64,000 nt of DNA from a bacterium (GTDB lineage Bacteria > Patescibacteriota > Minisyncoccia > Phycocordibacterales > UBA2100). Below the pieces are notes generated by a model. It made no database searches. It was not told the DNA's origin and was given only the letters and a program-made list of their open reading frames with translations. Position 1 is the first letter of the stretch. Each line of letters starts with the position of its first letter. Below, one piece after another: positions 53,941 to 63,708 of this stretch. Location: the NCBI GenBank assembly GCA_021781955.1, contig JAJXVV010000002.1:10730-74729 (forward strand), in the 5' to 3' direction. The position numbers and the translations under genes were made by a program.

Positions 53941-54091
53941 CCACTGCGACATAGAGACGGGCACCCGCCTGCTCACATGTCGCAGTGGTCATAGGTCGAA
54001 AGGCCTGTGTGCGGTCGGAAACGGCCGCGAGCAGAGCGGATGCCCTTTTCTGTGCGTTTTGCTCTGTTAGTTAGTAGAAACCACTGCGACA
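53941..54091. promoter_or_regulatory. three copies of CCACTGCGACA: an inverted pair (53941-53952 / 53977-53988) and a copy abutting the mod start codon (54081-54091)
   Basis: direct reading of sequence; lies in divergent region between 609-aa gene and mod. Confidence 0.4.
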
Positions 54092-54093
54092 AA

Positions 54094-55890
54094 ATGAAAA
54101 ACCAGAGCATTACGATTGCCCAATCAAAAGGGCGGCCGCTTCTCCAATGGGTCGGTAAAAAACCTCTTGAGAGTGTCGAGTTTTATCCCGCGCAAGAAAA
54201 AGAGATTTACGGCGACAAGAACGCTCGCGATTTCGGTAAACTTTTTTGGGGCGACAATCTGCAAGTGCTTTCGCACTTGCTCAAGGAATATCGCGGTGCG
54301 ATTGACCTCATTTATATTGACCCACCGTTCGACAGCAAGGCAGATTATGTGAAGCGCGTCCAGTTGCGTGGCGAGCGCATGGAGGGAACGCAGCAGAGCT
54401 TGATAGAGGAGAAGCAGTACACGGACATCTGGGAAAAGGATGAGTATTTGCAGTTCATATATGAGCGATTTCTGCTGATGCGCGAACTTCTGTCGGATAG
54501 CGGGAGCATATTCGTTCATGTGGATTGGCACAAAAGCTCCTATATCAGATTGATACTGGATGAGGTATTTGGGGCAGACCGATTTGTGAATGAAATCATC
54601 TGGCACTACGCCGATAACTTTCAGGGGAATGTAAGAGGGTTTGCCACGAACCACAACAACATTTTTTGGTACTCAAAAAATGAGAGCTATACGGCCAACA
54701 AGGTGATGGTGGATTTGGGCAAAACCATCAAGCGGGATAAGCGCGTATGGTCGAGAGAAAAACAAACGCTGGTTGCGGCTCGGGATGAAAACGGGAAAAT
54801 CATCTATCAGGACTTTACTGAAAAGAAAGCCGACGACGTTTGGGAAATAGGTCAAAGCTCGACTACGAAGTCGGCGAGCGCCGAGTATCTGGGCTATCCA
54901 ACGCAGAAGCCAGAAGCGCTCCTTGAGCGCATCATACGGGCGGCATCGAATGAAGGAGACCTCGTGGCGGATTTTTTCGTCGGCTCTGGCACGACCTGCG
55001 CTGTCGCCCAGAAGCTCGGGCGCAAATGGATTGGGTGCGACATCAACCTTGGTGCAATACAGACGAGCACAAAGCGACTCAACCAAATCATCGCGGGTCA
55101 GCTCGAAAACAGAACGCTGGATTTCAGGGGCTCGCTCGGTTTCAAGGTATTCAACGTGAACGATTACGACGTGTTCAAAAACGAGTTGGAGGCCAAAGAA
55201 ATCGTGATGGAAATGTATGGGGTCGAGCCAGTGAAGCGTACCTATTTTGACGGCATCCTCGATAAGAACTTCGTAAAGGTGATGCCACTCAACCGTGTGC
55301 TCAACAAAATGGACATCCGTACCTTGCTCAAAACGGTCTCCGAAAAAATGGACACCTTTACCGTCAAGGCGAAATCGAAGTCAGGCGAACCATTATACGA
55401 AGAAGGCGTGTTGATGATTTGCTCGGGCATGGAGCTGGATGTTTTGGACTTCTTGAAAAAGGAAAACAAGACAGGCGTGAGAATAGAGGTGCGCGATATT
55501 CTCATTGATAAGCAAAATCTCATCTTCAAGAAAAAGCCCGAAGCGAGGATTGACGCGCAGATGAAAGACGGAAAGCTCATCGTCGAGTTGAAGGATTTTT
55601 ATTCACCGATACTGATGCGTAAGTTGGAGATTGAAAATGGGAAAGCGCTCAAAAAGGCGACGCGGGCAAAAGTCGGCGACTTCAAGCAAATCATTGATAG
55701 CGTCGCCATTGACGTGGACTATGACGGCAAGCTGTTCAATGCCGAGAAGATGGACTTGCCAGAAAGGGGTGAAGTTATCGCCGCAAAGTATTCATGGGAT
55801 TACGCAAAGAAGGGCAAGCACTGCATTGCCGTGAAAATCATTGATGTGCTCGGCGAGGAGTATTTTGAGACCTTCGAGGTGAGCGCATAG
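54094..55890 (+). CDS. mod: Type III restriction-modification DNA methyltransferase (Mod), beta-class N6/N4 MTase
   Basis: motif IV IDLIYIDPPFDS N-terminal, motif I VADFFVGSGTTCAVAQKLGRKWIGCD C-terminal, TRD between; followed by res. Confidence 0.8.
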   Translation: MKNQSITIAQSKGRPLLQWVGKKPLESVEFYPAQEKEIYGDKNARDFGKLFWGDNLQVLSHLLKEYRGAIDLIYIDPPFDSKADYVKRVQLRGERMEGTQQSLIEEKQYTDIWEKDEYLQFIYERFLLMRELLSDSGSIFVHVDWHKSSYIRLILDEVFGADRFVNEIIWHYADNFQGNVRGFATNHNNIFWYSKNESYTANKVMVDLGKTIKRDKRVWSREKQTLVAARDENGKIIYQDFTEKKADDVWEIGQSSTTKSASAEYLGYPTQKPEALLERIIRAASNEGDLVADFFVGSGTTCAVAQKLGRKWIGCDINLGAIQTSTKRLNQIIAGQLENRTLDFRGSLGFKVFNVNDYDVFKNELEAKEIVMEMYGVEPVKRTYFDGILDKNFVKVMPLNRVLNKMDIRTLLKTVSEKMDTFTVKAKSKSGEPLYEEGVLMICSGMELDVLDFLKKENKTGVRIEVRDILIDKQNLIFKKKPEARIDAQMKDGKLIVELKDFYSPILMRKLEIENGKALKKATRAKVGDFKQIIDSVAIDVDYDGKLFNAEKMDLPERGEVIAAKYSWDYAKKGKHCIAVKIIDVLGEEYFETFEVSA

Positions 55891-55895
55891 TCGCT

Positions 55896-58433
55896 ATGGA
55901 TACTCTCTTTCTCCAAGCAATCCAAAAGCAGGTCGCACAGTGGCGCGACGGCGACTATAGAGGCATTGAGCATGAAACCCGCAACATTCTCTCGCACATA
56001 AAACGTGTCGCGTTTTTGCATCTGCCACAGATTGAAGCTCTGGAAACATACATTTACCTCAAAGAGGTCGTAGGCAACAAACCATCACTTGAGGTATTTC
56101 GGTCCTCATTCGATAGCGAGCTTGAGCTTATACGCGCACTCGGCGTATCGGATAAACTCGCACTTGAGCTTGTGTACGACAAAGAAAAGGACGCAAAAAT
56201 ACAGGCGGCTTTGGAGGAGAAGTTTGGGCGTCTCGATTACGCCAATCAAGTGTACGCACTTACCATGGGTTCAGGCAAAACCATCTTGATGGCTGTAATG
56301 ATGCTCTACGATTTCGTGCTCTCGTACTATCATCCGACGGACGTGCGGTTTGCAAAAAATGCTCTGGTATTTGCTCCCGATACGACCATCATAGAGAGTT
56401 TGAAGGAGATAAAATCGTTCGATTACGCGAAGGTGCTGCCGAAGGAATATGGCGTCGTGCTGCTGAATACCAAATACCACTACCTCGAAAGCACGAGTAC
56501 GCCGCTCCTGCCAATCGGCAACTATAATGTCATTGTCTCAAACTCCCAGAAAATCATCCTCAAGACACGAACCGAAAACCGAAACGGCACGAGTCGTCTT
56601 TTCGGCGATAAGAACGAGCTTGAGCGTCGCGAGGTTGAGAACAGCCGCTTACAGGCGATACGGCAACTATCGCAACTGATGATTTTCGTGGATGAAGCGC
56701 ATCACTCCTACGGCCAGACGCTCGAAGGAACGCTCAAGAAAACGCGACAGACGATTGATTACCTGCATCAGAATACGCCTCTCGTTGCTGTCGTAAATCT
56801 CACGGGTACGCCGTATGTAAATAACGAGATGATTGCTGATGTCGTCTACCACTTCGGTCTCAAGGCGGGTATCGAGCGCGGGATACTCAAGCAGGTTCGC
56901 ATCTTGGATTACGGCAACGTGCGCTCGCAAAAGTTCTTGGAGGAAGTGGTTGATACTTTCGTTGCGGAGTATGGGGAGTGGCGGCTCGAAGGGCGTTTGC
57001 CGAAAATGGCTTTTTACGCAGCGAACATCGCAGACCTGCGACAGGATTTGAAACCGAAGCTGGAGCGCATACTTGCCGAGAAAGGCATCCCACTCGATAC
57101 GGTTCTTGAGTACCATACAGATGCCGAAGAAAACGCCGATGAGTTTCGCAGCTTGGATACGGGCGAAAGCAAAAAGCAGTTCGTCCTGCTTGTCGGCAAG
57201 GGCACGGAAGGATGGAACTGCCGCTCACTCGTTGCAGTCGCACTATACAAAAAACCAAAAAGCACCATTCTCGTGCTTCAATCAACGACGCGCTGCTTGC
57301 GTTCTATAGGCGACAACTCGACGCGGGCGCACATCTTTCTCTCTACCGAGAACTACAAGATACTTGACCGCGAACTGAAAAATAACTTTGCCACGAGTGC
57401 AAGCGAGCTTTCTTCGCAGGACCAGAAAACGGTCGAGCATACTCTCAAGATAGAGAAGCGGAGAACCGTCAAGGTGAAAAAGACATTGAAAGATGTGCTG
57501 GCCGTTCAGAGCGCGGACATGGGCAGTATTCGTATTGATTTCAAGAAGTTCAAACCCGAACTTTACCGCGCGTATGTGAGCGAGGGCGGGATTTTTATCG
57601 GTGAGGAGGGACGAGCGGGGTATCAGGAGACGAAGGCCGTGCGCGGCATCCAAGAGGAAAACGACCTGACTTTTTACGAGATTGTTGGGGTCATAAATCG
57701 TCAAACGCACCTGCCCTGTATTGCTATCGAAAGCGTAATCGTTGGAAGCGGAAAAGAGCGAAACGTATTCGCGAAAGAGGTGAATAAAAATCCCGCGCTC
57801 GTTGCGTTTGCGATACAGGAAATACTCAAGAGCGCCTATCAGTACGAGGAGAGAACCGAGGTTATCGAGGAGGTGCTGGAGCTTACAAAACTGTACCCGT
57901 TCAAAATCAGCGTTCAGCAAAATAGGAACGCTCTTATTGTGTACCGCGAGACCGAGGAGCAGGAAGGCCATAAAGGGCGGCTCGGCTTCCACATCAATCC
58001 GTACAACTTTGATAGCGCAGACGAGAAAGAGTTGTTTCGCTATCTGCGCGGCGTACTCAACACGCGAGAGAGTATCAAAGAAATCTACTTTACGGGCGGC
58101 GCGACCGATACCACACATAACGATTTTTACTTCGAGTATTGGAGTCCCGAAAAACAACGCGTCGCCCGATACTTTCCCGATTTTCTCGTTGAGACGACGA
58201 AAGGCAGGTATTTGGTGGTTGAAACGAAAAGCCCTGCGGAGCGAGCCGACTACGAAGCCAACAAGCGTTCCTATAACGGCAAACTTGAACAGCTCACCAA
58301 TGAGGTGCTCGCAAAAGAGCTTGGCTTCCGTGCGTTCCAAGAAGCGAATAAGGATTTTGAGTATCGCATCACGTTCAACGCAGTACTCCAGCGGGAGCAG
58401 GTAGAGTTGTTTGAAGAGATTGAGCACCTATAA
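55896..58433 (+). CDS. res: Type III restriction enzyme Res subunit (SF2 helicase + endonuclease)
   Basis: Walker A MGSGKTILMA, DEAH-like MIFVDEAHHSYGQ, 845 aa, 6 nt after mod. Confidence 0.8.
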   Translation: MDTLFLQAIQKQVAQWRDGDYRGIEHETRNILSHIKRVAFLHLPQIEALETYIYLKEVVGNKPSLEVFRSSFDSELELIRALGVSDKLALELVYDKEKDAKIQAALEEKFGRLDYANQVYALTMGSGKTILMAVMMLYDFVLSYYHPTDVRFAKNALVFAPDTTIIESLKEIKSFDYAKVLPKEYGVVLLNTKYHYLESTSTPLLPIGNYNVIVSNSQKIILKTRTENRNGTSRLFGDKNELERREVENSRLQAIRQLSQLMIFVDEAHHSYGQTLEGTLKKTRQTIDYLHQNTPLVAVVNLTGTPYVNNEMIADVVYHFGLKAGIERGILKQVRILDYGNVRSQKFLEEVVDTFVAEYGEWRLEGRLPKMAFYAANIADLRQDLKPKLERILAEKGIPLDTVLEYHTDAEENADEFRSLDTGESKKQFVLLVGKGTEGWNCRSLVAVALYKKPKSTILVLQSTTRCLRSIGDNSTRAHIFLSTENYKILDRELKNNFATSASELSSQDQKTVEHTLKIEKRRTVKVKKTLKDVLAVQSADMGSIRIDFKKFKPELYRAYVSEGGIFIGEEGRAGYQETKAVRGIQEENDLTFYEIVGVINRQTHLPCIAIESVIVGSGKERNVFAKEVNKNPALVAFAIQEILKSAYQYEERTEVIEEVLELTKLYPFKISVQQNRNALIVYRETEEQEGHKGRLGFHINPYNFDSADEKELFRYLRGVLNTRESIKEIYFTGGATDTTHNDFYFEYWSPEKQRVARYFPDFLVETTKGRYLVVETKSPAERADYEANKRSYNGKLEQLTNEVLAKELGFRAFQEANKDFEYRITFNAVLQREQVELFEEIEHL

Positions 58434-58561: not shown

Positions 58562-58742
58562 TATGCTCTCGATAGAGGATTTGCGAAAGACGCTCCTCGA
58601 CGAGGAAAGGTATAAGTACACCGATGAGGAGTTGAGGAAAATCAACACACTTCTCGATGCGCTCGCGGACGTGATTTTCGATAAATGGCTCGCCGAAAGA
58701 AACAGCAAGAAGGCCAAAAAAGAGGGAACGGTAAATCATTGA
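58542..58742 (+). CDS. small acidic helical ORF (66 aa), paralog-like to preceding ORF
   Basis: MSEINPDMLSIEDLRKTLLDEERYKYTDEELRKINTLLDALADVIFDKWLAERNSKK. Confidence 0.3.
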   Translation: MSEINPDMLSIEDLRKTLLDEERYKYTDEELRKINTLLDALADVIFDKWLAERNSKKAKKEGTVNH

Positions 58743-58924
58743 CACCACGCCCAAATGTAGTATAATGCTATGCGGTTCTTTGATATTCAACTTGCGTTTG
58801 CCACAGCAGAAAGCAGCTCATCTTTGGGCTTCTCCCTGCTATGGCAAACTCTCAAACACGAGAGCGCCCGCTGGCAGAGCAACACGTTCGCAAGAACACG
58901 TTGCACATACACGAGGAACACGTC

Positions 58925-59494
58925 ATGGCTGACACGTTCGTCATGTCTACCCGCCAAGCGGCGGAACTGGACTACGCCTTCGAGCGGAACGGTTGGACGC
59001 CCGCAGAGGTCAAGCAGCTTTCGAGCGGCGGACTTCTCGCGGACTTCCGCAAGGTTCTGCTCGGCCACGCGGTCATCTCGGTGCCCGAGCACTTGATTGA
59101 CCTCGACGCCGACCCGTTCGTTCCGAACGGCTGGAAGGTCGAGGAGCACCAGAAAGGCGGCCAGTTCAAATGGGACGCCACCAAGGTGAAGCTCCATCTC
59201 TCCAAGAAGCAGCAAGGCGGCAAAGTACTGGAAGGCAATAAGCTCCGCGAGGAACTGAAAGGCCAACCCGTCTACAATGCCAATCTGCTCGACTACCTGC
59301 TCAAGAACCCGCACCTCATTCCCGAGGAGTGGAAGAGCAAGTATGTCTTCTTCTGGGGGACGGTCTACCGCGGCTCGGACGGCGACCTCTGCGTTCGCTG
59401 CCTCTGCTGGAGCGGCGGCGGGTGGCGCTGGGGCTACGGCTGGCTCGGCAGCGACTGGTACGGGAACGACCCCGCTGCGGTGCCCGCAAGTTGA
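58925..59494 (+). CDS. DGR target protein (189 aa) with C-terminal variable region
   Basis: GAGGAA SD before ATG 58925; last ~41 codons are the VR. Confidence 0.7.
   Translation: MADTFVMSTRQAAELDYAFERNGWTPAEVKQLSSGGLLADFRKVLLGHAVISVPEHLIDLDADPFVPNGWKVEEHQKGGQFKWDATKVKLHLSKKQQGGKVLEGNKLREELKGQPVYNANLLDYLLKNPHLIPEEWKSKYVFFWGTVYRGSDGDLCVRCLCWSGGGWRWGYGWLGSDWYGNDPAAVPAS
59366..59489 (+). repeat. DGR variable region (VR)
   Basis: 124 bp, 103/124 identical to TR with no indels; all 21 differences at TR adenines. Confidence 0.85.
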
Positions 59495-59547
59495 ACTATG
59501 GACTTGGTGCCTTGGGTTTTGTTTGACCCTTTGCACCTTGCCCTTTG

Positions 59548-59589
59548 CCCCGCGTTGTCTGAAATATGACAGCGCGGGGTTTTGTTTTG
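59548..59589 (+). terminator. GC-rich hairpin + T-run 54 nt after VR (terminator and/or DGR target-recognition hairpin)
   Basis: CCCCGCGTTGTC-tgaaatat-GACAGCGCGGGG then TTTTGTTTTG. Confidence 0.5.
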
Positions 59590-59821
59590 ATACAATCCGA
59601 AGCGGAAGTAGGTGAATACGCGGGCGACCACGGTTTCCCGCTACCGAACCCAGTACCCATACATCGAGAGCATCTCCGATTACGGTTTGAGATGGAGTGG
59701 TGGATGGGGCACTACAAAAAGTGAAATAACTTGGTGTGGGGTGCTATGCGAGTTTCGCTCGCGGATACGATACAGCCCGAGACCTCCAATCGGGCAGTGG
59801 CACGGACGGCATCTCATACGC

Positions 59822-59945
59822 AACCGCAACTCGGACGGCGACCTCTACGTTCGCTACCTCTACTGGAACGGCGACAGGTGGAACTGGAACAACAACTGGC
59901 TCGACAACGACTGGAACGAGAACAACCCCGCTGCGGTGCCCGCAA
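59822..59945 (+). repeat. DGR template region (TR)
   Basis: A-rich (AAC codons in VR frame); see VR. Confidence 0.85.
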
Positions 59946-59966
59946 CTCGCCTCACTTCTCACCCCG

Positions 59967-60314
59967 CTACTTGGCGGGGTTGAGTTTTGTAAGCTGGCCG
60001 TTCCAGCCGCCGAGCATCTTGCCGACCTCTTCCACTCTCACAGAGAGCGCGGCATATTTTCTGTTGTCGAGCGATTTCGTTTCCCAGAGCACCATGAGGA
60101 GCACTTTCAGCGTGTCCGTCTTCCTGATTGCGAGCCGCACATACGGCCGCTTCTCGTCGCGTGCAAGAAAGCTGGCAGATGCTATCGTTTCCATGATTTC
60201 CACAAACAATGTATCAACGCGCTGTCCAAGTGAGTGTCTGTGAGCTTTCGGTAAGGCCTGATAGTAGCCGTACCACATCAAGTACGCGCTTTTTACTTTC
60301 TGTAGCAACGGCAA
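59967..60314 (-). CDS. avd: Avd-family accessory variability determinant (four-helix bundle / 23S-IVS protein family), opposite strand to TR and RT
   Basis: C-terminal EEVGKMLGGW aligns with Bordetella phage bAvd AEVGRILGSW as recalled from memory; annotated start is TTG at 60314, first ATG at 60278. Confidence 0.6.
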   Translation of the reverse strand: MPLLQKVKSAYLMWYGYYQALPKAHRHSLGQRVDTLFVEIMETIASASFLARDEKRPYVRLAIRKTDTLKVLLMVLWETKSLDNRKYAALSVRVEEVGKMLGGWNGQLTKLNPAK

Positions 60315-60321
60315 GAGCCGC

Positions 60322-60333
60322 GGGGGGGGGGGG
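60322..60333. repeat. G12 homopolymeric tract in divergent avd/RT intergenic region
   Basis: cgGGGGGGGGGGGGtgg read directly; 14 nt before RT ATG. Confidence 0.8.
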
Positions 60334-60346
60334 TGGCTTCAATGAT

Positions 60347-61360
60347 ATGGCCGTCCAAAAGTTCACTCATACATATCGGAGTATAGCTTCGCTTTCAAAC
60401 CTTCTCGAAGCATGGAAAGAGTTTGTGCGCGGCAAGCGGCATCGTGCGGACGTACAGGAGTTTGAGCTAAATCTGATGGGCAACGTCCTATCGCTACACA
60501 GCGACCTCACGGCAAAAACCTACAAGCACTCACCGTATGAGGCGTTCAACATTTCGGACCCGAAGCCACGCAACATCCACAAAGCCGCAGTGCGCGACCG
60601 TCTGCTCCACCACGCGCTCTACCGAAAGCTGTATCCGTTTTTCGATAAGACGTTCGTACCGCACTCGTATTCGTGTAGGAGAGGCAAGGGCGGCCATAAA
60701 GCACTCGACTGCTTCCGTAGATTTGCGTATCAGGTATCGCGCAACCACACACGCACGGTCTGGGTGCTGAAGTGCGACATCCGCAAGTTCTTTGCCTCGA
60801 TTGACCATGCGTGCCTTACCGCCATACTGCGGCGCTCTATCGAGGACGAGGATATTCTCTGGCTCTTGTCTCAAATCATCGAGAGTTTCTATTCGACCGA
60901 GAAAGGCGTCGGTCTGCCGCTCGGCAATCTCACCTCGCAACTTCTGGTGAACGTCTACATGAATGAGTTTGACCACTATGTAGCGCGACAACTCCGCATA
61001 CAGCACTACATCCGATACGCAGATGATTTCGTTTTCATGTCCGCCGACAAGCAAGGGCTGATAGAGCTTCTCCCGAGCATACGGGATTTTCTGTGGAACG
61101 AACTGCGGCTCACGCTGCATCCCGATAAGGTTTCTCTACGCACTGTCGCCTCGGGTGTGGATTTTCTCGGATGGGTGCATTTTCCAGACCATCGGGTGCT
61201 GCGTACAACGACGAAAAAGAGAATGTTCCGAGGCATCAGGGCGCAAGAGGGTAAAGAGGAAACGGTGCAGTCCTATTTCGGACTGATGAGCCACGGCAAT
61301 GCAAAGAAACTGCGGCGAGAGGTCGAAGATGAACTGGATGAAATGAAGAACGGCCTATAA
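60347..61360 (+). CDS. DGR reverse transcriptase
   Basis: YIRYADDFVF (YxDD) and LGNLTSQLLVNVYMNEF (DGR-RT-specific I/LGxxxSQ motif); 337 aa. Confidence 0.85.
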   Translation: MAVQKFTHTYRSIASLSNLLEAWKEFVRGKRHRADVQEFELNLMGNVLSLHSDLTAKTYKHSPYEAFNISDPKPRNIHKAAVRDRLLHHALYRKLYPFFDKTFVPHSYSCRRGKGGHKALDCFRRFAYQVSRNHTRTVWVLKCDIRKFFASIDHACLTAILRRSIEDEDILWLLSQIIESFYSTEKGVGLPLGNLTSQLLVNVYMNEFDHYVARQLRIQHYIRYADDFVFMSADKQGLIELLPSIRDFLWNELRLTLHPDKVSLRTVASGVDFLGWVHFPDHRVLRTTTKKRMFRGIRAQEGKEETVQSYFGLMSHGNAKKLRREVEDELDEMKNGL

Positions 61361-61480: not shown

Positions 61481-61505
61481 CGCCACCGAAGGGTGGTGTT
61501 TTTTG
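61481..61505. terminator. intrinsic terminator after RT (bidirectional with 61510..61989)
   Basis: CGCCACC-gaag-GGTGGTG + TTTTTTG. Confidence 0.55.
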
Positions 61506-61509
61506 TTGG

Positions 61510-61989
61510 CTAATCCTCATCGGGATTGCCTTTCATCGTGCTGATGAGCTTCATGTCGCGGTATTTGTTCGTAATCCAAGCGGGCACGATGCTCCAAAAG
61601 TGGAGCTGGCCGTTGTCGCCGATTTTCCGCACGATAACTTTTATCTTGCGCCCATCAATGATGGCGATGATGCCCCAGTATTTTACGGGCTTGCTTTTGC
61701 GGACGGGCTTCTTGTGGCTTTTCATCTCAAACTCCTTGAGCGTCTCCTCGTACTCTTGGTAGGTCGTCGAACGCTCCACGAGCTTCACAGCCCGCGATAG
61801 GAGCTTGAAGCGGAGTATCTGCGACGGGCGCTCGCGTTCGCTGCGCGAACCCTTGAATACAATGTGATTGAAGCCCTCGGCGGTGAAGTGGACGTAATCG
61901 TTCAGCGCGGGCGAGAACACGGGACCGATGCTGTGGTAGAACTTTTGCGCGTCGGCGCGGAGCTTTTCGTAGTTGGATACGTCTTCCAT
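61510..61989 (-). CDS. hypothetical protein (159 aa)
   Basis: clean ORF convergent with RT; no recognised motif. Confidence 0.35.
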   Translation of the reverse strand: MEDVSNYEKLRADAQKFYHSIGPVFSPALNDYVHFTAEGFNHIVFKGSRSERERPSQILRFKLLSRAVKLVERSTTYQEYEETLKEFEMKSHKKPVRKSKPVKYWGIIAIIDGRKIKVIVRKIGDNGQLHFWSIVPAWITNKYRDMKLISTMKGNPDED

Positions 61990-62080: not shown

Positions 62081-62193
62081 GTCCAAGTCCCGCAGCAGTC
62101 TAGTTTAGTATCGATGGACCAAGAGTCGTCTCATATTTTGAGCCGTGTTTTTTGGATGCCCGATTTTAGTCCAAGAGGGGTCAAAAGTGCGAC
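62081..62193 (+). repeat. attR core (17 bp identical to tRNA-Gln 3' end) plus ~95-bp adjacent repeat unit, copy A
   Basis: GTCCAAGTCCCGCAGCAgtctagtttagtatcgatggaccaagag... Confidence 0.65.
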
Positions 62194-62265
62194 TCCAGGT
62201 TTTGAGCCATAAAAGTGGTTCGAGTCTTAGAAAGGTCATTTTGTGTGCAGTGGTATGATTCCGGC

Positions 62266-62964
62266 ATGCAACTAAAGGTTCCCTCTTGGAATATTTGGAT
62301 AGACGGACATTTTGATAGCATCAAAGATTTTCTTCGGGATGCGGATGCCGACATCATCGGGCTTCAAGAGGTGAAAGACGATGACCCGGAGCGTGACGTC
62401 ATCGGGTACCTTACCGAATTAGGCTACCAGCACGTCTTCACGCCCGTAGCAAAGAAATGGAAGGATAAGGTATATAGAGACGGGTGTGCAGTGTTTAGTA
62501 AGCACGAGATTGTCTCCTCCATGGTGCACAAACTATCCGAAAAAGACAGCAGATACGCGCAGCAGGCCGACGTAAAGATAAATGGTTCGATCCTGCACGT
62601 GTTTAGCACTCACCTCATCCACACTCACCAAAAGCCCTCCGAGGTTCAAGAACTCCAGGCAGAAACGCTGGTGGGTATTCTGCCTACAGAGCGAACCATC
62701 GTCATGGGTGATTTCAATGCCACGCCTGATAGCGCCACCATACAAAAGATGAAACGAGACATGTTCTACGATACTGATTCCGCATCCATGCCAACATGGA
62801 GCGTCTACCCGGAGGGGTGCCACATCTGCAACCCTCAAGCAATTGATATAAAACTCGATTACATCTTCGCAAGCAAGGACTTAAAAACAGCCTCGTTCAA
62901 AGTCGAAGAATCGAAAGGTTCGGATCACTTGCCGATCGCGGTTCTCGTGGAGAGAGGGTTATAG
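62266..62964 (+). CDS. endonuclease/exonuclease/phosphatase family protein (second EEP paralog)
   Basis: WNIWIDGH...IIGLQEV and C-terminal GSDHLPI. Confidence 0.7.
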   Translation: MQLKVPSWNIWIDGHFDSIKDFLRDADADIIGLQEVKDDDPERDVIGYLTELGYQHVFTPVAKKWKDKVYRDGCAVFSKHEIVSSMVHKLSEKDSRYAQQADVKINGSILHVFSTHLIHTHQKPSEVQELQAETLVGILPTERTIVMGDFNATPDSATIQKMKRDMFYDTDSASMPTWSVYPEGCHICNPQAIDIKLDYIFASKDLKTASFKVEESKGSDHLPIAVLVERGL

Positions 62965-62990: not shown

Positions 62991-63518
62991 ATGAAACTTG
63001 TTTTGCCGTCGGTCGAGTATAAAGTTTCGTTTATTGAAGCAGTGAAAGAATTGCAGAGCGAGACTACCACGATGACCACGCGCAGGTATCGTGAACTTTC
63101 AATCCCCGAACTCGAAGCTGATTTTGAATCGTTCGCGGAAAAAGAGCGCAGTCACGCACGAGGGAAGAATCAGCCCGAGGGCTATGTGCCTCAGTCGGAA
63201 TTCTGGTTCGTCGACGGCGGTGAGTATATCGGGCATGTCGGTATTCGCCATGAACTCAACGAACACCTCAAGACAATCGGTGGACATATCGGTTATAGCA
63301 TTCGTCCTAGCAAGCGCGGTAAAGGATACGGCAATAAAATTCTAGAATTCGCGCTCCCCAAAGCAAAAGAACTTGGAATCAATTGCGTGCTTCTCACATG
63401 CGATGCAACGAACGTTGCCTCGCGCAAAGTCATAGAAAAAAATGGAGGCGTTCTCGAAAATCAGGTGCCGAACCCGCAAACAGGAATCGATAAGCTACGT
63501 TTTTGGATTGATATTTGA
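62991..63518 (+). CDS. GNAT family N-acetyltransferase
   Basis: acetyl-CoA motif A RPSKRGKGYGNKILEFAL and motif B region. Confidence 0.75.
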   Translation: MKLVLPSVEYKVSFIEAVKELQSETTTMTTRRYRELSIPELEADFESFAEKERSHARGKNQPEGYVPQSEFWFVDGGEYIGHVGIRHELNEHLKTIGGHIGYSIRPSKRGKGYGNKILEFALPKAKELGINCVLLTCDATNVASRKVIEKNGGVLENQVPNPQTGIDKLRFWIDI

Positions 63519-63591: not shown

Positions 63592-63708
63592 GTCCAAGAG
63601 CAGCAGCAGTCTAGTTTAGTATCGATAGACCAAGACCTGTCTCTATGGTTAGAGCCGTGTTTTTGATATGACCTCGATATCGTCCAAGACGGGTCAAAAA
63701 TGTGTCGA
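63592..63708 (+). repeat. degenerate second copy (copy B) of the att-containing repeat unit
   Basis: GTCCAAGagcagcagcaGTCTAGTTTAGTATCGATaGACCAAGA...; ~80% identical to copy A by eye, core 13/17. Confidence 0.55.

Follow-up and report, generated by a model that had tools for sequence, protein, structure and literature searches.

Positions 58925–61360 of a 64-kb window of patescibacterial DNA (64,000 nucleotides of contig JAJXVV010000002.1, assembly GCA_021781955.1; all coordinates below are those of this window) raise three questions: whether they hold a genuine diversity-generating retroelement (DGR), whether this element has been rewriting its target gene in the recent past, and how its mutagenesis might be held in check. 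A first-pass annotation had described a complete DGR here, and all the parts on which it relied were found again: a reverse transcriptase (RT), the accessory protein Avd, and a variable and a template repeat (VR and TR) with adenine-only mismatches at the 3′ end of an open reading frame (ORF). Right about the DGR, it had made no mention of the inverted avd gene (architecture B3), of a structured RNA that contains the TR, or of a clade-wide simple repeat, G12 in the window, between avd and the RT gene. It is this last feature, a possible switch of the mutagenesis itself, that makes an otherwise ordinary element worth a closer look. The features of the locus are listed in Table 1.

Adenine-specific differences between VR and TR

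The VR (59366–59489) and the TR (59822–59945) are 124 nt each and were aligned without gaps. Our recount gave 103 identities and 21 mismatches, the same numbers as reported before. All mismatches fall where the TR has an A (17 A>G, 3 A>T, 1 A>C), and no G, C or T position of the TR differs in the VR; mismatches away from TR adenines, which the first-pass annotation had named as one observation that would speak against a DGR, were looked for in the recount, and 21/21 were at TR-A. Of the 34 adenines of the TR, 21 are substituted in the VR and 13 are unchanged, and the probability that all 21 mismatches land on these 34 positions by chance is about 3e-15. In the target frame, which is that of the ORF ending at 59494, all 21 substituted positions are first or second codon positions. 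The claim that the TR is full of AAC codons when read in the VR frame also held, with the quoted peptide strings found in the translations.

The homology between the two repeats stops exactly at 59489/59945, and the flanks differ immediately beyond. At the other end, only the dinucleotide AC (59364–59365) upstream of the VR matches the TR flank before similarity is lost. Identity had been said to resume up to the exact 3′ end, and the last 21 nt (59469–59489) are indeed identical; we refer to them as a block resembling the initiation of mutagenic homing (IMH) site. The VR ends 5 nt before the stop codon of the 58925–59494 ORF. An imperfect inverted repeat (59500–59543) is present after the VR and not after the TR; its stacked helices, each of about 5 bp, alternate with T/U-rich 3x3 loops, and a hairpin or a cruciform is possible. 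Nested helices of differing sequence occupy the same position in most related loci, and by analogy the repeat possibly has a role in homing.

Among 42 distinct VR/TR pairs from related loci, 587/612 mismatches are at TR-A, with a substitution spectrum of 66% A>G, 20% A>T and 14% A>C. The A>G skew of the window is a family trait, because A>G prevails to this extent over the 42 related pairs. It may reflect either a misincorporation bias of the RT or selection for Gly, Ser, Asp or Cys codons. No further TR-like copy was found on either strand of the 64-kb window. A second VR or a remote target within the window was likewise rejected, with none on either strand and no paralogue in a tblastn search.

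Reverse transcriptase, Avd and cassette architecture

The RT had been called DGR-type on account of its LGNLTSQ and YADD boxes, and both are present in the translation; where other RTs have QG, the protein has I/LGxxxSQ, and it also has YxDD. Its best match among solved structures is the Bordetella phage bRT (8ub7, E=2.6e-47), compared to 1e-22 for group II intron RT structures and 1e-21 or worse for retron-type RTs, and it also matches phrog_1423 (E=4e-112) and RVT_1. An identity as retron, group II or defence RT was rejected: the NCBIfam matches are far below their cut-offs, and PADLOC gives generic RT similarity only. In two related loci (L015:7404-8393 and L044:7482-8459) the RT-homologous stretch contains one in-frame stop each, which may reflect a pseudogene, a sequencing error or recoding.

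An ORF of the Avd family had been placed between TR and RT. Family and position stand, while the strand was corrected to minus. The family model proposed for 59967–60314, PF05635, is matched below its cut-off (17.8 bits, cut-off 33.8); PF22296 (bAvd) is matched instead, above threshold (42.3 bits, cut-off 40), as is phrog_3206 (“Avd protein of DGR”, E=1.2e-15).

The cassette therefore has the order target(+)-TR(+)-avd(-)-RT(+). DGRs of the candidate phyla radiation (CPR) were reportedly first surveyed by Paul et al. in 2017. We collected relatives of the window cassette as 80 loci fetched from a scan for target homologues and a further 80 loci from a metagenome scan with RT alignment. The full cassette in the same order and orientation was present in about 35/80 of the fetched target loci, and an inverted avd next to the RT gene, with the same cassette order, in 87/87 assessable related cassettes. 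According to Wu et al. (2018; PMC5758913), 90% of CPR DGRs have architecture B3 (TR-(avd)-RT), and Roux et al. (2021; PMC8144416) describe a Patescibacteria-restricted DGR clade 2 with targets that lack recognizable domains. To judge from its sequence, the window locus is a DGR of this CPR B3/clade 2 subtype, with every defining feature that can be tested in this way present. It resembles these DGRs in gene order, reverse-strand avd, host group and adenine-only mismatches, and in its small target without transmembrane or known domains and with a C-terminal VR. No feature sets the window cassette apart from them, and as a DGR it is one more ordinary member of a well-catalogued clade.

Signature of homing in a sister strain

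A sister strain (L002) with about 90% DNA identity to the window allowed the history of the two repeats to be compared. The TRs of the two strains differ at 4 positions and the VRs at 19. TR-A positions account for 17 of these 19 VR differences; the remaining two (G>C and C>T) are exactly the strain-specific changes of the TR. Because the VRs mirror the non-adenine changes of their own TR, each VR has been rewritten from its own TR after the strains split. The comparison shows the signature of homing, a transfer from TR to VR after the divergence of the window strain and L002.

A conserved simple repeat at the junction of avd and RT

Thirteen nt separate the G12 tract from the RT ATG downstream, and the tract falls within the avd reading frame, at its 5′ end. 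An initial set of 28 related cassettes had a G-run at this spot without exception, and almost nowhere else in the loci, and the runs at this junction are kept even in genomes of 36–40% GC. Extending the comparison to 87 cassettes, we found a G-run of 6–15 (mode 10) in 79, another simple repeat in 6 and none in 2. The repeats other than G-runs are (CTGG)9 and (CTGG)11, on two related contigs, (TG)18, (TC)17, (GT)8 and (AG)10. Runs of G or C of at least 8 number 74 in the 4.6 kb of junction sequence and 21 in the other 1.12 Mb, an enrichment of about 850-fold. What is conserved is a slippery repeat and not a particular sequence, the hallmark of a contingency (phase-variation) tract. The first codon of the RT is an ATG at the aligned position in 39/87 loci.

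Where avd starts matters for the interpretation of this tract. The TTG at 60314, listed as the first codon, aligns with Leu in 70/87 loci and with Ile in 9; because the aligned Leu uses six different codons, this TTG is an internal residue and not a start codon. Amino-acid conservation of avd (R/K, L/I/V, L, P) runs up to the repeat tract, and in the two repeat-free loci avd has an ATG 12–15 codons 5′ of the conserved LP(I/V)L (MNETTPIPNRAT-LPIL...). The real start most probably lies 5′ of the tract, at TTG 60342–60340 (ATG in the sister strain L002) or at GTG 60366–60364. Only a tract of 11 C brings them into frame with avd.

Over 4–6.5 kb, the window (G12) and three other assemblies of its strain (G11) differ in tract length and nowhere else. 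With G11, TTG 60342–60340 reads MKPPPPPRLLPLLQK... in frame into Avd, yielding a TTG/GVG-started MKPPPPPRLLPLLQ..., while with G12 the upstream start gives a 50-aa out-of-frame ORF (60214–60366). The window would thus carry the predicted OFF allele (12) and the sister assemblies of the strain the predicted ON allele (11). One other pair of related contigs differs in length, G10 vs. G8. Among the tracts that are not homopolymers, three are read through from an upstream ATG (L096, L109, L147) and three are out of frame or without a start (L118, L145, L151); (CTGG)9 is in frame with the upstream ATG (ON), and the related (CTGG)11 is out of frame (OFF).

Tract length also alters the possible translation 5′ of the RT: in the G12 allele no stop codon interrupts the RT frame from ATG 60209 across the G-run, giving a 383-aa ORF (60209–61360) with a GGGGG stretch, and the G11 alleles lose this extension. 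A role of the G-run as Shine-Dalgarno sequence for the RT was considered and rejected, since the spacing between run and ATG of 7–34 nt and the replacements by repeats other than G argue against it. In the searchable literature, outside Paul et al. 2017 and one 2026 preprint, no link of DGRs to simple-repeat or contingency switching was found.

A structured RNA around the TR

Because the mismatches are at adenines of the + strand, the template RNA should be the + strand, by the mechanism of DGRs, and hence convergent with avd. The spacer between VR and TR was aligned for 27 loci, and an alignment of RNA structure (A2) was built from 26 full-length loci. The spacer alignment shows the order inverted repeat, target terminator, extended −10 box and about 220 highly conserved nt leading into the TR. 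The box, TGnTAnAAT, is conserved at a near-constant short distance 5′ of the conserved RNA start (26 loci), and transcription would start at about 59603, some 7 nt after it.

RNAalifold on the 26 loci predicted 75 pairs, 39 of them with compensatory changes. Counting pairs directly, 95.4% of the cells are paired, compared to 37–43% when the partners were slid by 1–3 columns, and 232 cells are compensatory, compared to 22–58 in the slid controls; 0/500 shuffles reached the observed values. Helices P1, P2 and P3 (Table 1) are those with good support. After the TR, every locus has a linker (consensus CUCUCUUCAUUUCUC), a covarying GC hairpin and GUUUUGUUUU. A terminator scan places this hairpin at 59961–59980, and the 3′ part of the RNA is terminator-like and overlaps the avd stop codon. 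The linker (59949–59957) pairs with a conserved AAAAUGAAGA of the 5′ domain (59719–59727); this helix is paired in 87.6% of the cells vs. 44–54% in slid controls, with 13 vs. 1–8 compensatory cells, and the change from AUG/CAU to GUG/CAC in the window is one compensatory change of it. Since the linker pairs back to the 5′ domain, the TR is bracketed by a duplex. We infer that the TR is part of a separate transcript of about 390 nt that has an extended −10 promoter and a terminator hairpin of its own.

Two other pairings were rejected. The columns of a predicted long-range pairing of 59645–59653 with the TR (59896–59903) are nearly invariant and show no covariation; the minimum-free-energy structure of the window pairs the post-TR linker with the 5′ end of the RNA, a helix that is not conserved in relatives, and the 59719–59727/59949–59957 helix was preferred. 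Rfam 15 has no family that matches the TR-flanking RNA at gathering threshold or E<=1, and a match to Pseudomon-1 (19.7 bits) was put down to chance. A published survey was limited to the 40 nt before and the 100 nt after the TR (Handa et al., bioRxiv 10.1101/2023.10.23.563531). As far as we checked, a structured 5′ RNA domain with its own promoter and terminator is new for the whole clade, being absent from Rfam 15 and from the searchable literature. Two independent short-read assemblies of the window strain (L084 and L085) both break at 59733, in the 5′ domain of the RNA about 90 nt before the TR; the TR/VR repeats presumably caused this break in the assemblies.

Alternative explanations

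We are confident that the locus is a genuine DGR that has homed recently. Two observations weigh against this: the Avd protein scores 61.6 bits against NF033474, below the curated equivalog cut-off of 80, and five independent assemblies of the window strain all have the same VR. The latter would be expected of a DGR that was active recently but no longer is, a switched-off or frozen relic with an unchanging VR, as would the tract allele of the window, which puts the upstream avd start out of frame. Orphan targets without RT, avd or TR within 6 kb in many related genomes, and one orphan lineage with an invariant VR over 11 sequenced variants that differ elsewhere, likewise fit this reading. We nevertheless consider a relic unlikely for the window. 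Its ORFs are all intact and its VR and TR lack the decay-type mismatches of loci L004, L038 and L040; the promoter, helices and terminator of the RNA are intact as well; the in-frame G11 allele is found in three other assemblies; and TR-specific substitutions have been copied to the VR since the split from the 90%-identical strain. It is scarcely credible that the locus is no DGR at all, but a partial gene duplication next to an unrelated RT of the retron, group II intron or defence kind, with an A-bias from, e.g., deamination. The A>G skew (17/21 in the window, 66% in the family) alone could suggest editing of the A-to-I type, and the RT has sub-threshold matches to group II, retron and DRT models. 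However, A>T and A>C also occur, only TR-A positions differ, and these only at codon positions 1 and 2; no other RT class is matched anywhere near its cut-off, and among structures bRT is the closest relative; Avd is present, the four-part cassette recurs in 87 loci, and changes of the TR outside adenines have been copied to the VR.

For the repeat tract our reading is held less firmly: we lean towards a repeat that makes Avd, and with it the activity of the DGR, phase-variable. Several findings count against it. The difference between 12 and 11 could be an assembly error in a homopolymer. An in-frame upstream avd start is present in only 30 cases (79 G-run loci; frames 0/1/2 = 30/50/32), and this absence of frame preference fits random ON/OFF states and, equally, a non-coding tract; an enrichment of in-frame starts was sought and not seen in these counts, which neither support nor exclude a coding switch. 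A −10-like hexamer follows the G-run (T1 73%, A2 45%, T6 61%), and the commonest distance from the run to the RT ATG is 13 nt (12/36 loci), which equals the hexamer plus 7 nt. Because of this hexamer and spacing, the tract could act on RT transcription instead or as well. It would then work at the level of DNA or transcription, as promoter spacer or upstream element for a leaderless or short-leader RT mRNA, and its length would tune transcription of the RT, perhaps also of avd, as in the porA, fim and hif promoter tracts. The resemblance of the hexamer to a −10 box (TAGAAT, TATAAT, TAGTAT...), the 13-nt spacing and the in-frame avd starts without frame preference speak for this reading, which we consider rather unlikely. 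Against it, some tracts are di- or tetranucleotide repeats of 34–44 bp, too long for a −35/−10 spacer and typical of coding contingency repeats; amino-acid conservation of avd continues up to the tract, repeat-free relatives start avd 5′ of the equivalent position, and the hexamer has A2 in only 45% of the loci and is TGGCTT in the window. We regard it as improbable that the tract has a fixed structural role without any switch, be it as a poly-proline N-terminal tail of Avd, as a G-rich ribosome-binding or G-quadruplex element for the RT, or as a barrier to replication or transcription, with 12 vs. 11 being an assembly artefact. In favor of this reading, short-read assemblies are prone to errors in homopolymers of such length, poly-G is able to base-pair with the anti-Shine-Dalgarno sequence, and tract lengths cluster at 9–11. 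On the other hand, six loci have unrelated repeat motifs at the same spot, so that mutability is what they share, and not sequence, peptide or pairing; pure C-runs are kept at 36–40% GC, which argues against selection for proline itself; and the spacing between run and ATG varies from 7 to 34 nt.

Target gene, related loci and neighborhood

Table 1. Features of the DGR cassette, in window coordinates.
Feature	Position	Strand	Remarks
Candidate target promoter, sigma-70-type	58739..58766	+	TTGACA-16-TATAAT, 12/12 consensus match (consensus scan)
Target (variable protein) gene	58925..59494	+	189 aa; GAGG 9-12 nt 5′ of ATG
VR	59366..59489	+	encodes C-terminal scaffold ...CVRCLCWSGGGWRWGYGWLGSDWYGNDPAAVPA
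IMH-like block	59469..59489	+	21 nt, VR = TR (CCCCGCTGCGGTGCCCGCAA), GC-rich
Segmented imperfect inverted repeat	59500..59543		directly after target stop codon; dG -19.6 kcal/mol
Target intrinsic terminator	59547..59590	+	13-bp stem then TTTTGTTTTG; position conserved in relatives
Predicted extended −10 promoter of TR-containing RNA	59588..59596	+	TGaTACAAT
Structured 5′ domain of DGR RNA	59603..59821	+	~220 nt; helices P1-P3
Helix P1	59620-59641	+	
Helix P2	59658-59706	+	inner stem 59671-59694
Helix P3	59734-59819	+	encloses 59748-59762 and 59775-59795
TR	59822..59945	+	34 adenines; AAC-rich when read in VR frame
3′ part of DGR RNA	59946..59990	+	pyrimidine linker, GC hairpin 59959-59980, U-rich tail (TTGAGTTTTGT)
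avd core	59967..60314	-	115 aa as listed; convergent with TR, divergent from RT
Simple-sequence-repeat tract	60322..60333		G12 on +, C12 in avd sense (poly-Pro)
DGR reverse transcriptase	60347..61360	+	337 aa; LGNLTSQ and YADD boxes
Terminator-like hairpin and T-run after RT	61484..61508	+	

Between the sigma-70-type sequence at 58739–58766, which probably works as the target promoter, and the target ATG lies a leader of about 150 nt. An in-frame alternative ATG at 58841, used by some gene callers (P0122), would lengthen the target by 28 aa. The target protein has no sequence match in Pfam, NCBIfam or the PDB, and its predicted fold is weakly C-type-lectin-like. Its family comprises more than 1000 proteins and is restricted to Patescibacteria; in a scan of one genome per species, homologues were found in 332 species, essentially all Patescibacteria, and they are labelled Paceibacteria or Patescibacteria. 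Across 30 homologues the variable columns coincide with the AAC or A-containing codons of the TR. The 90% protein cluster of the window protein, consulted for VR variation within the population, contains only the sister strain and an N-terminally longer gene call.

Many genomes hold an orphan target homologue with the VR scaffold and no TR, avd or RT within 6 kb; about 30 such loci have the full 6-kb flank (L005, L006, L007, L011, L013, L016, L022, L024, L028, L031 and others). The cluster of P0034 has 84 members, and their VR is invariant although the protein varies elsewhere, which indicates a frozen VR. Loci L004, L038 and L040 have a TR-like copy and no detectable avd or RT, with VR/TR mismatches that include non-adenine positions, and look like decaying DGRs. 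Locus L003 (6001–9400) contains two tandem target genes that both match a single TR with A-only mismatches; its avd-RT junction is duplicated, with two G-runs (14 and 13) inside a 124-bp gap.

Directly upstream of the DGR lies a Type III restriction-modification pair (54007–58433, +), consisting of a Mod protein (N6_N4_Mtase; PADLOC MTase_III, 3e-78) and a ResIII helicase of 845 aa. These genes are neighbors of the DGR in all assemblies of the window strain, and no simple repeat was seen in mod. A LOOT RNA (RF03000; 53900–54029, +; 71 bits, gathering 46.4) adjoins and overlaps the start of the Mod ORF (54007–55890). Downstream, an ORF of 159 aa (61510–61989, −), convergent with the RT, was rejected as part of the element: it is absent from related cassettes and found only in the assemblies of the strain. 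It has no match in Pfam, NCBIfam, PHROGs or PADLOC. A non-coding element of about 100 nt is present twice (~62095–62190 and ~63600–63700; cagcagtctagtttagtatcgatRgaccaaga...gtcaaaaRtg), and its copies flank genes for an Exo_endo_phos (62215–62964) and a GNAT protein (62991–63518).

Comparison with known systems

With the DGR of Bordetella phage BPP-1 (mtd-avd-TR-brt), whose bRT-Avd-RNA complex is represented by structure 8ub7 and related entries (Handa et al.), the window shares the RT (2.6e-47 to bRT) with its I/LGxxxSQ and YxDD motifs, an Avd homologue, A-specific mutagenesis, an identical GC-rich 3′ block resembling IMH and an inverted repeat after the VR, positionally equivalent to the repeat downstream of the Bordetella IMH. 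In the window, however, the candidate IMH and IMH* are identical rather than slightly different, and avd is inverted and located downstream of the TR. The host is chromosomal and cellular and not a phage, the target is a 189-aa protein and not a tail fiber, the spectrum is skewed towards A>G, and avd carries a repeat tract. The RNAs also differ in layout: a long structured RNA lies 5′ of the TR in the window, whereas in Bordetella a 140-nt Sp lies 3′ of it. The post-TR hairpin of the window is in the position of the Avd-binding stem-loop of the Bordetella Sp. Because the window RNA appears to end about 45 nt after the TR, elements for RT binding or priming must sit differently from those of Bordetella. 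By analogy, the RNA of the clade would be a rearranged version of the Bordetella ribonucleoprotein scaffold, with its bulk 5′ of the TR.

Contingency repeats are poly-G/C tracts or tetranucleotide repeats in 5′ coding regions, or promoter tracts as in porA, fim and hif. The avd tract resembles the simple-sequence-repeat contingency loci of Neisseria, Haemophilus, Campylobacter and Bordetella in its type and place, as a homopolymer or a repeat of two or four nucleotides in the 5′ part of an ORF, between divergent genes; in its conserved position while the type of repeat differs between lineages; and in apparent length variation between identical or near-identical sequences, with in-frame and out-of-frame states among assemblies. 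It differs in that the gene encodes an accessory protein of a mutagenic retroelement and not a surface antigen or a restriction-modification methylase, and in that the hosts are uncultivated Patescibacteria, where switching is predicted from sequences. As far as we checked, the placement of the structured RNA and the hypermutable avd tract are clade-wide and undescribed.

Proposed mechanism and significance

In the mechanism that we propose, a + strand RNA of about 390 nt would be made from the extended −10 box at ~59588–59596 and end at the hairpin and U-tract at ~59990. It would comprise, as covariation indicates, the structured 5′ domain of about 220 nt, the TR and a 3′ linker that pairs back. 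By analogy with the position of the Avd-binding hairpin of Bordetella, the post-TR stem-loop may be bound by protein. RT and Avd would then reverse-transcribe the TR and misincorporate opposite adenines, as family membership and the adenine-only spectrum suggest. The cDNA would replace the VR up to the shared 21-nt 3′ block, possibly aided by the downstream inverted repeat, and homing would rewrite as many as 34 A-positions coding for the C-terminal surface of the 189-aa protein, which may be lectin-like and bind ligands. Slipped-strand changes in the length of the simple repeat in the 5′ coding end of avd would toggle translation of Avd, and hence mutagenesis.

The RNA supported by covariation (~59603–59990) provides a defined construct for reconstituting a CPR DGR, and suggests that an RNA scaffold of the Bordetella type can carry its bulk on the other side of the template. 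If the reading of the tract is true, a stochastic, heritable and reversible phase-variation switch gates targeted hypermutation in these bacteria. The conserved slippery repeat in avd would be a concrete and testable answer to the question of how the mutagenesis of a DGR is restrained once a useful variant exists, and it would apply to the Patescibacteria/CPR, the most DGR-rich group of bacteria.

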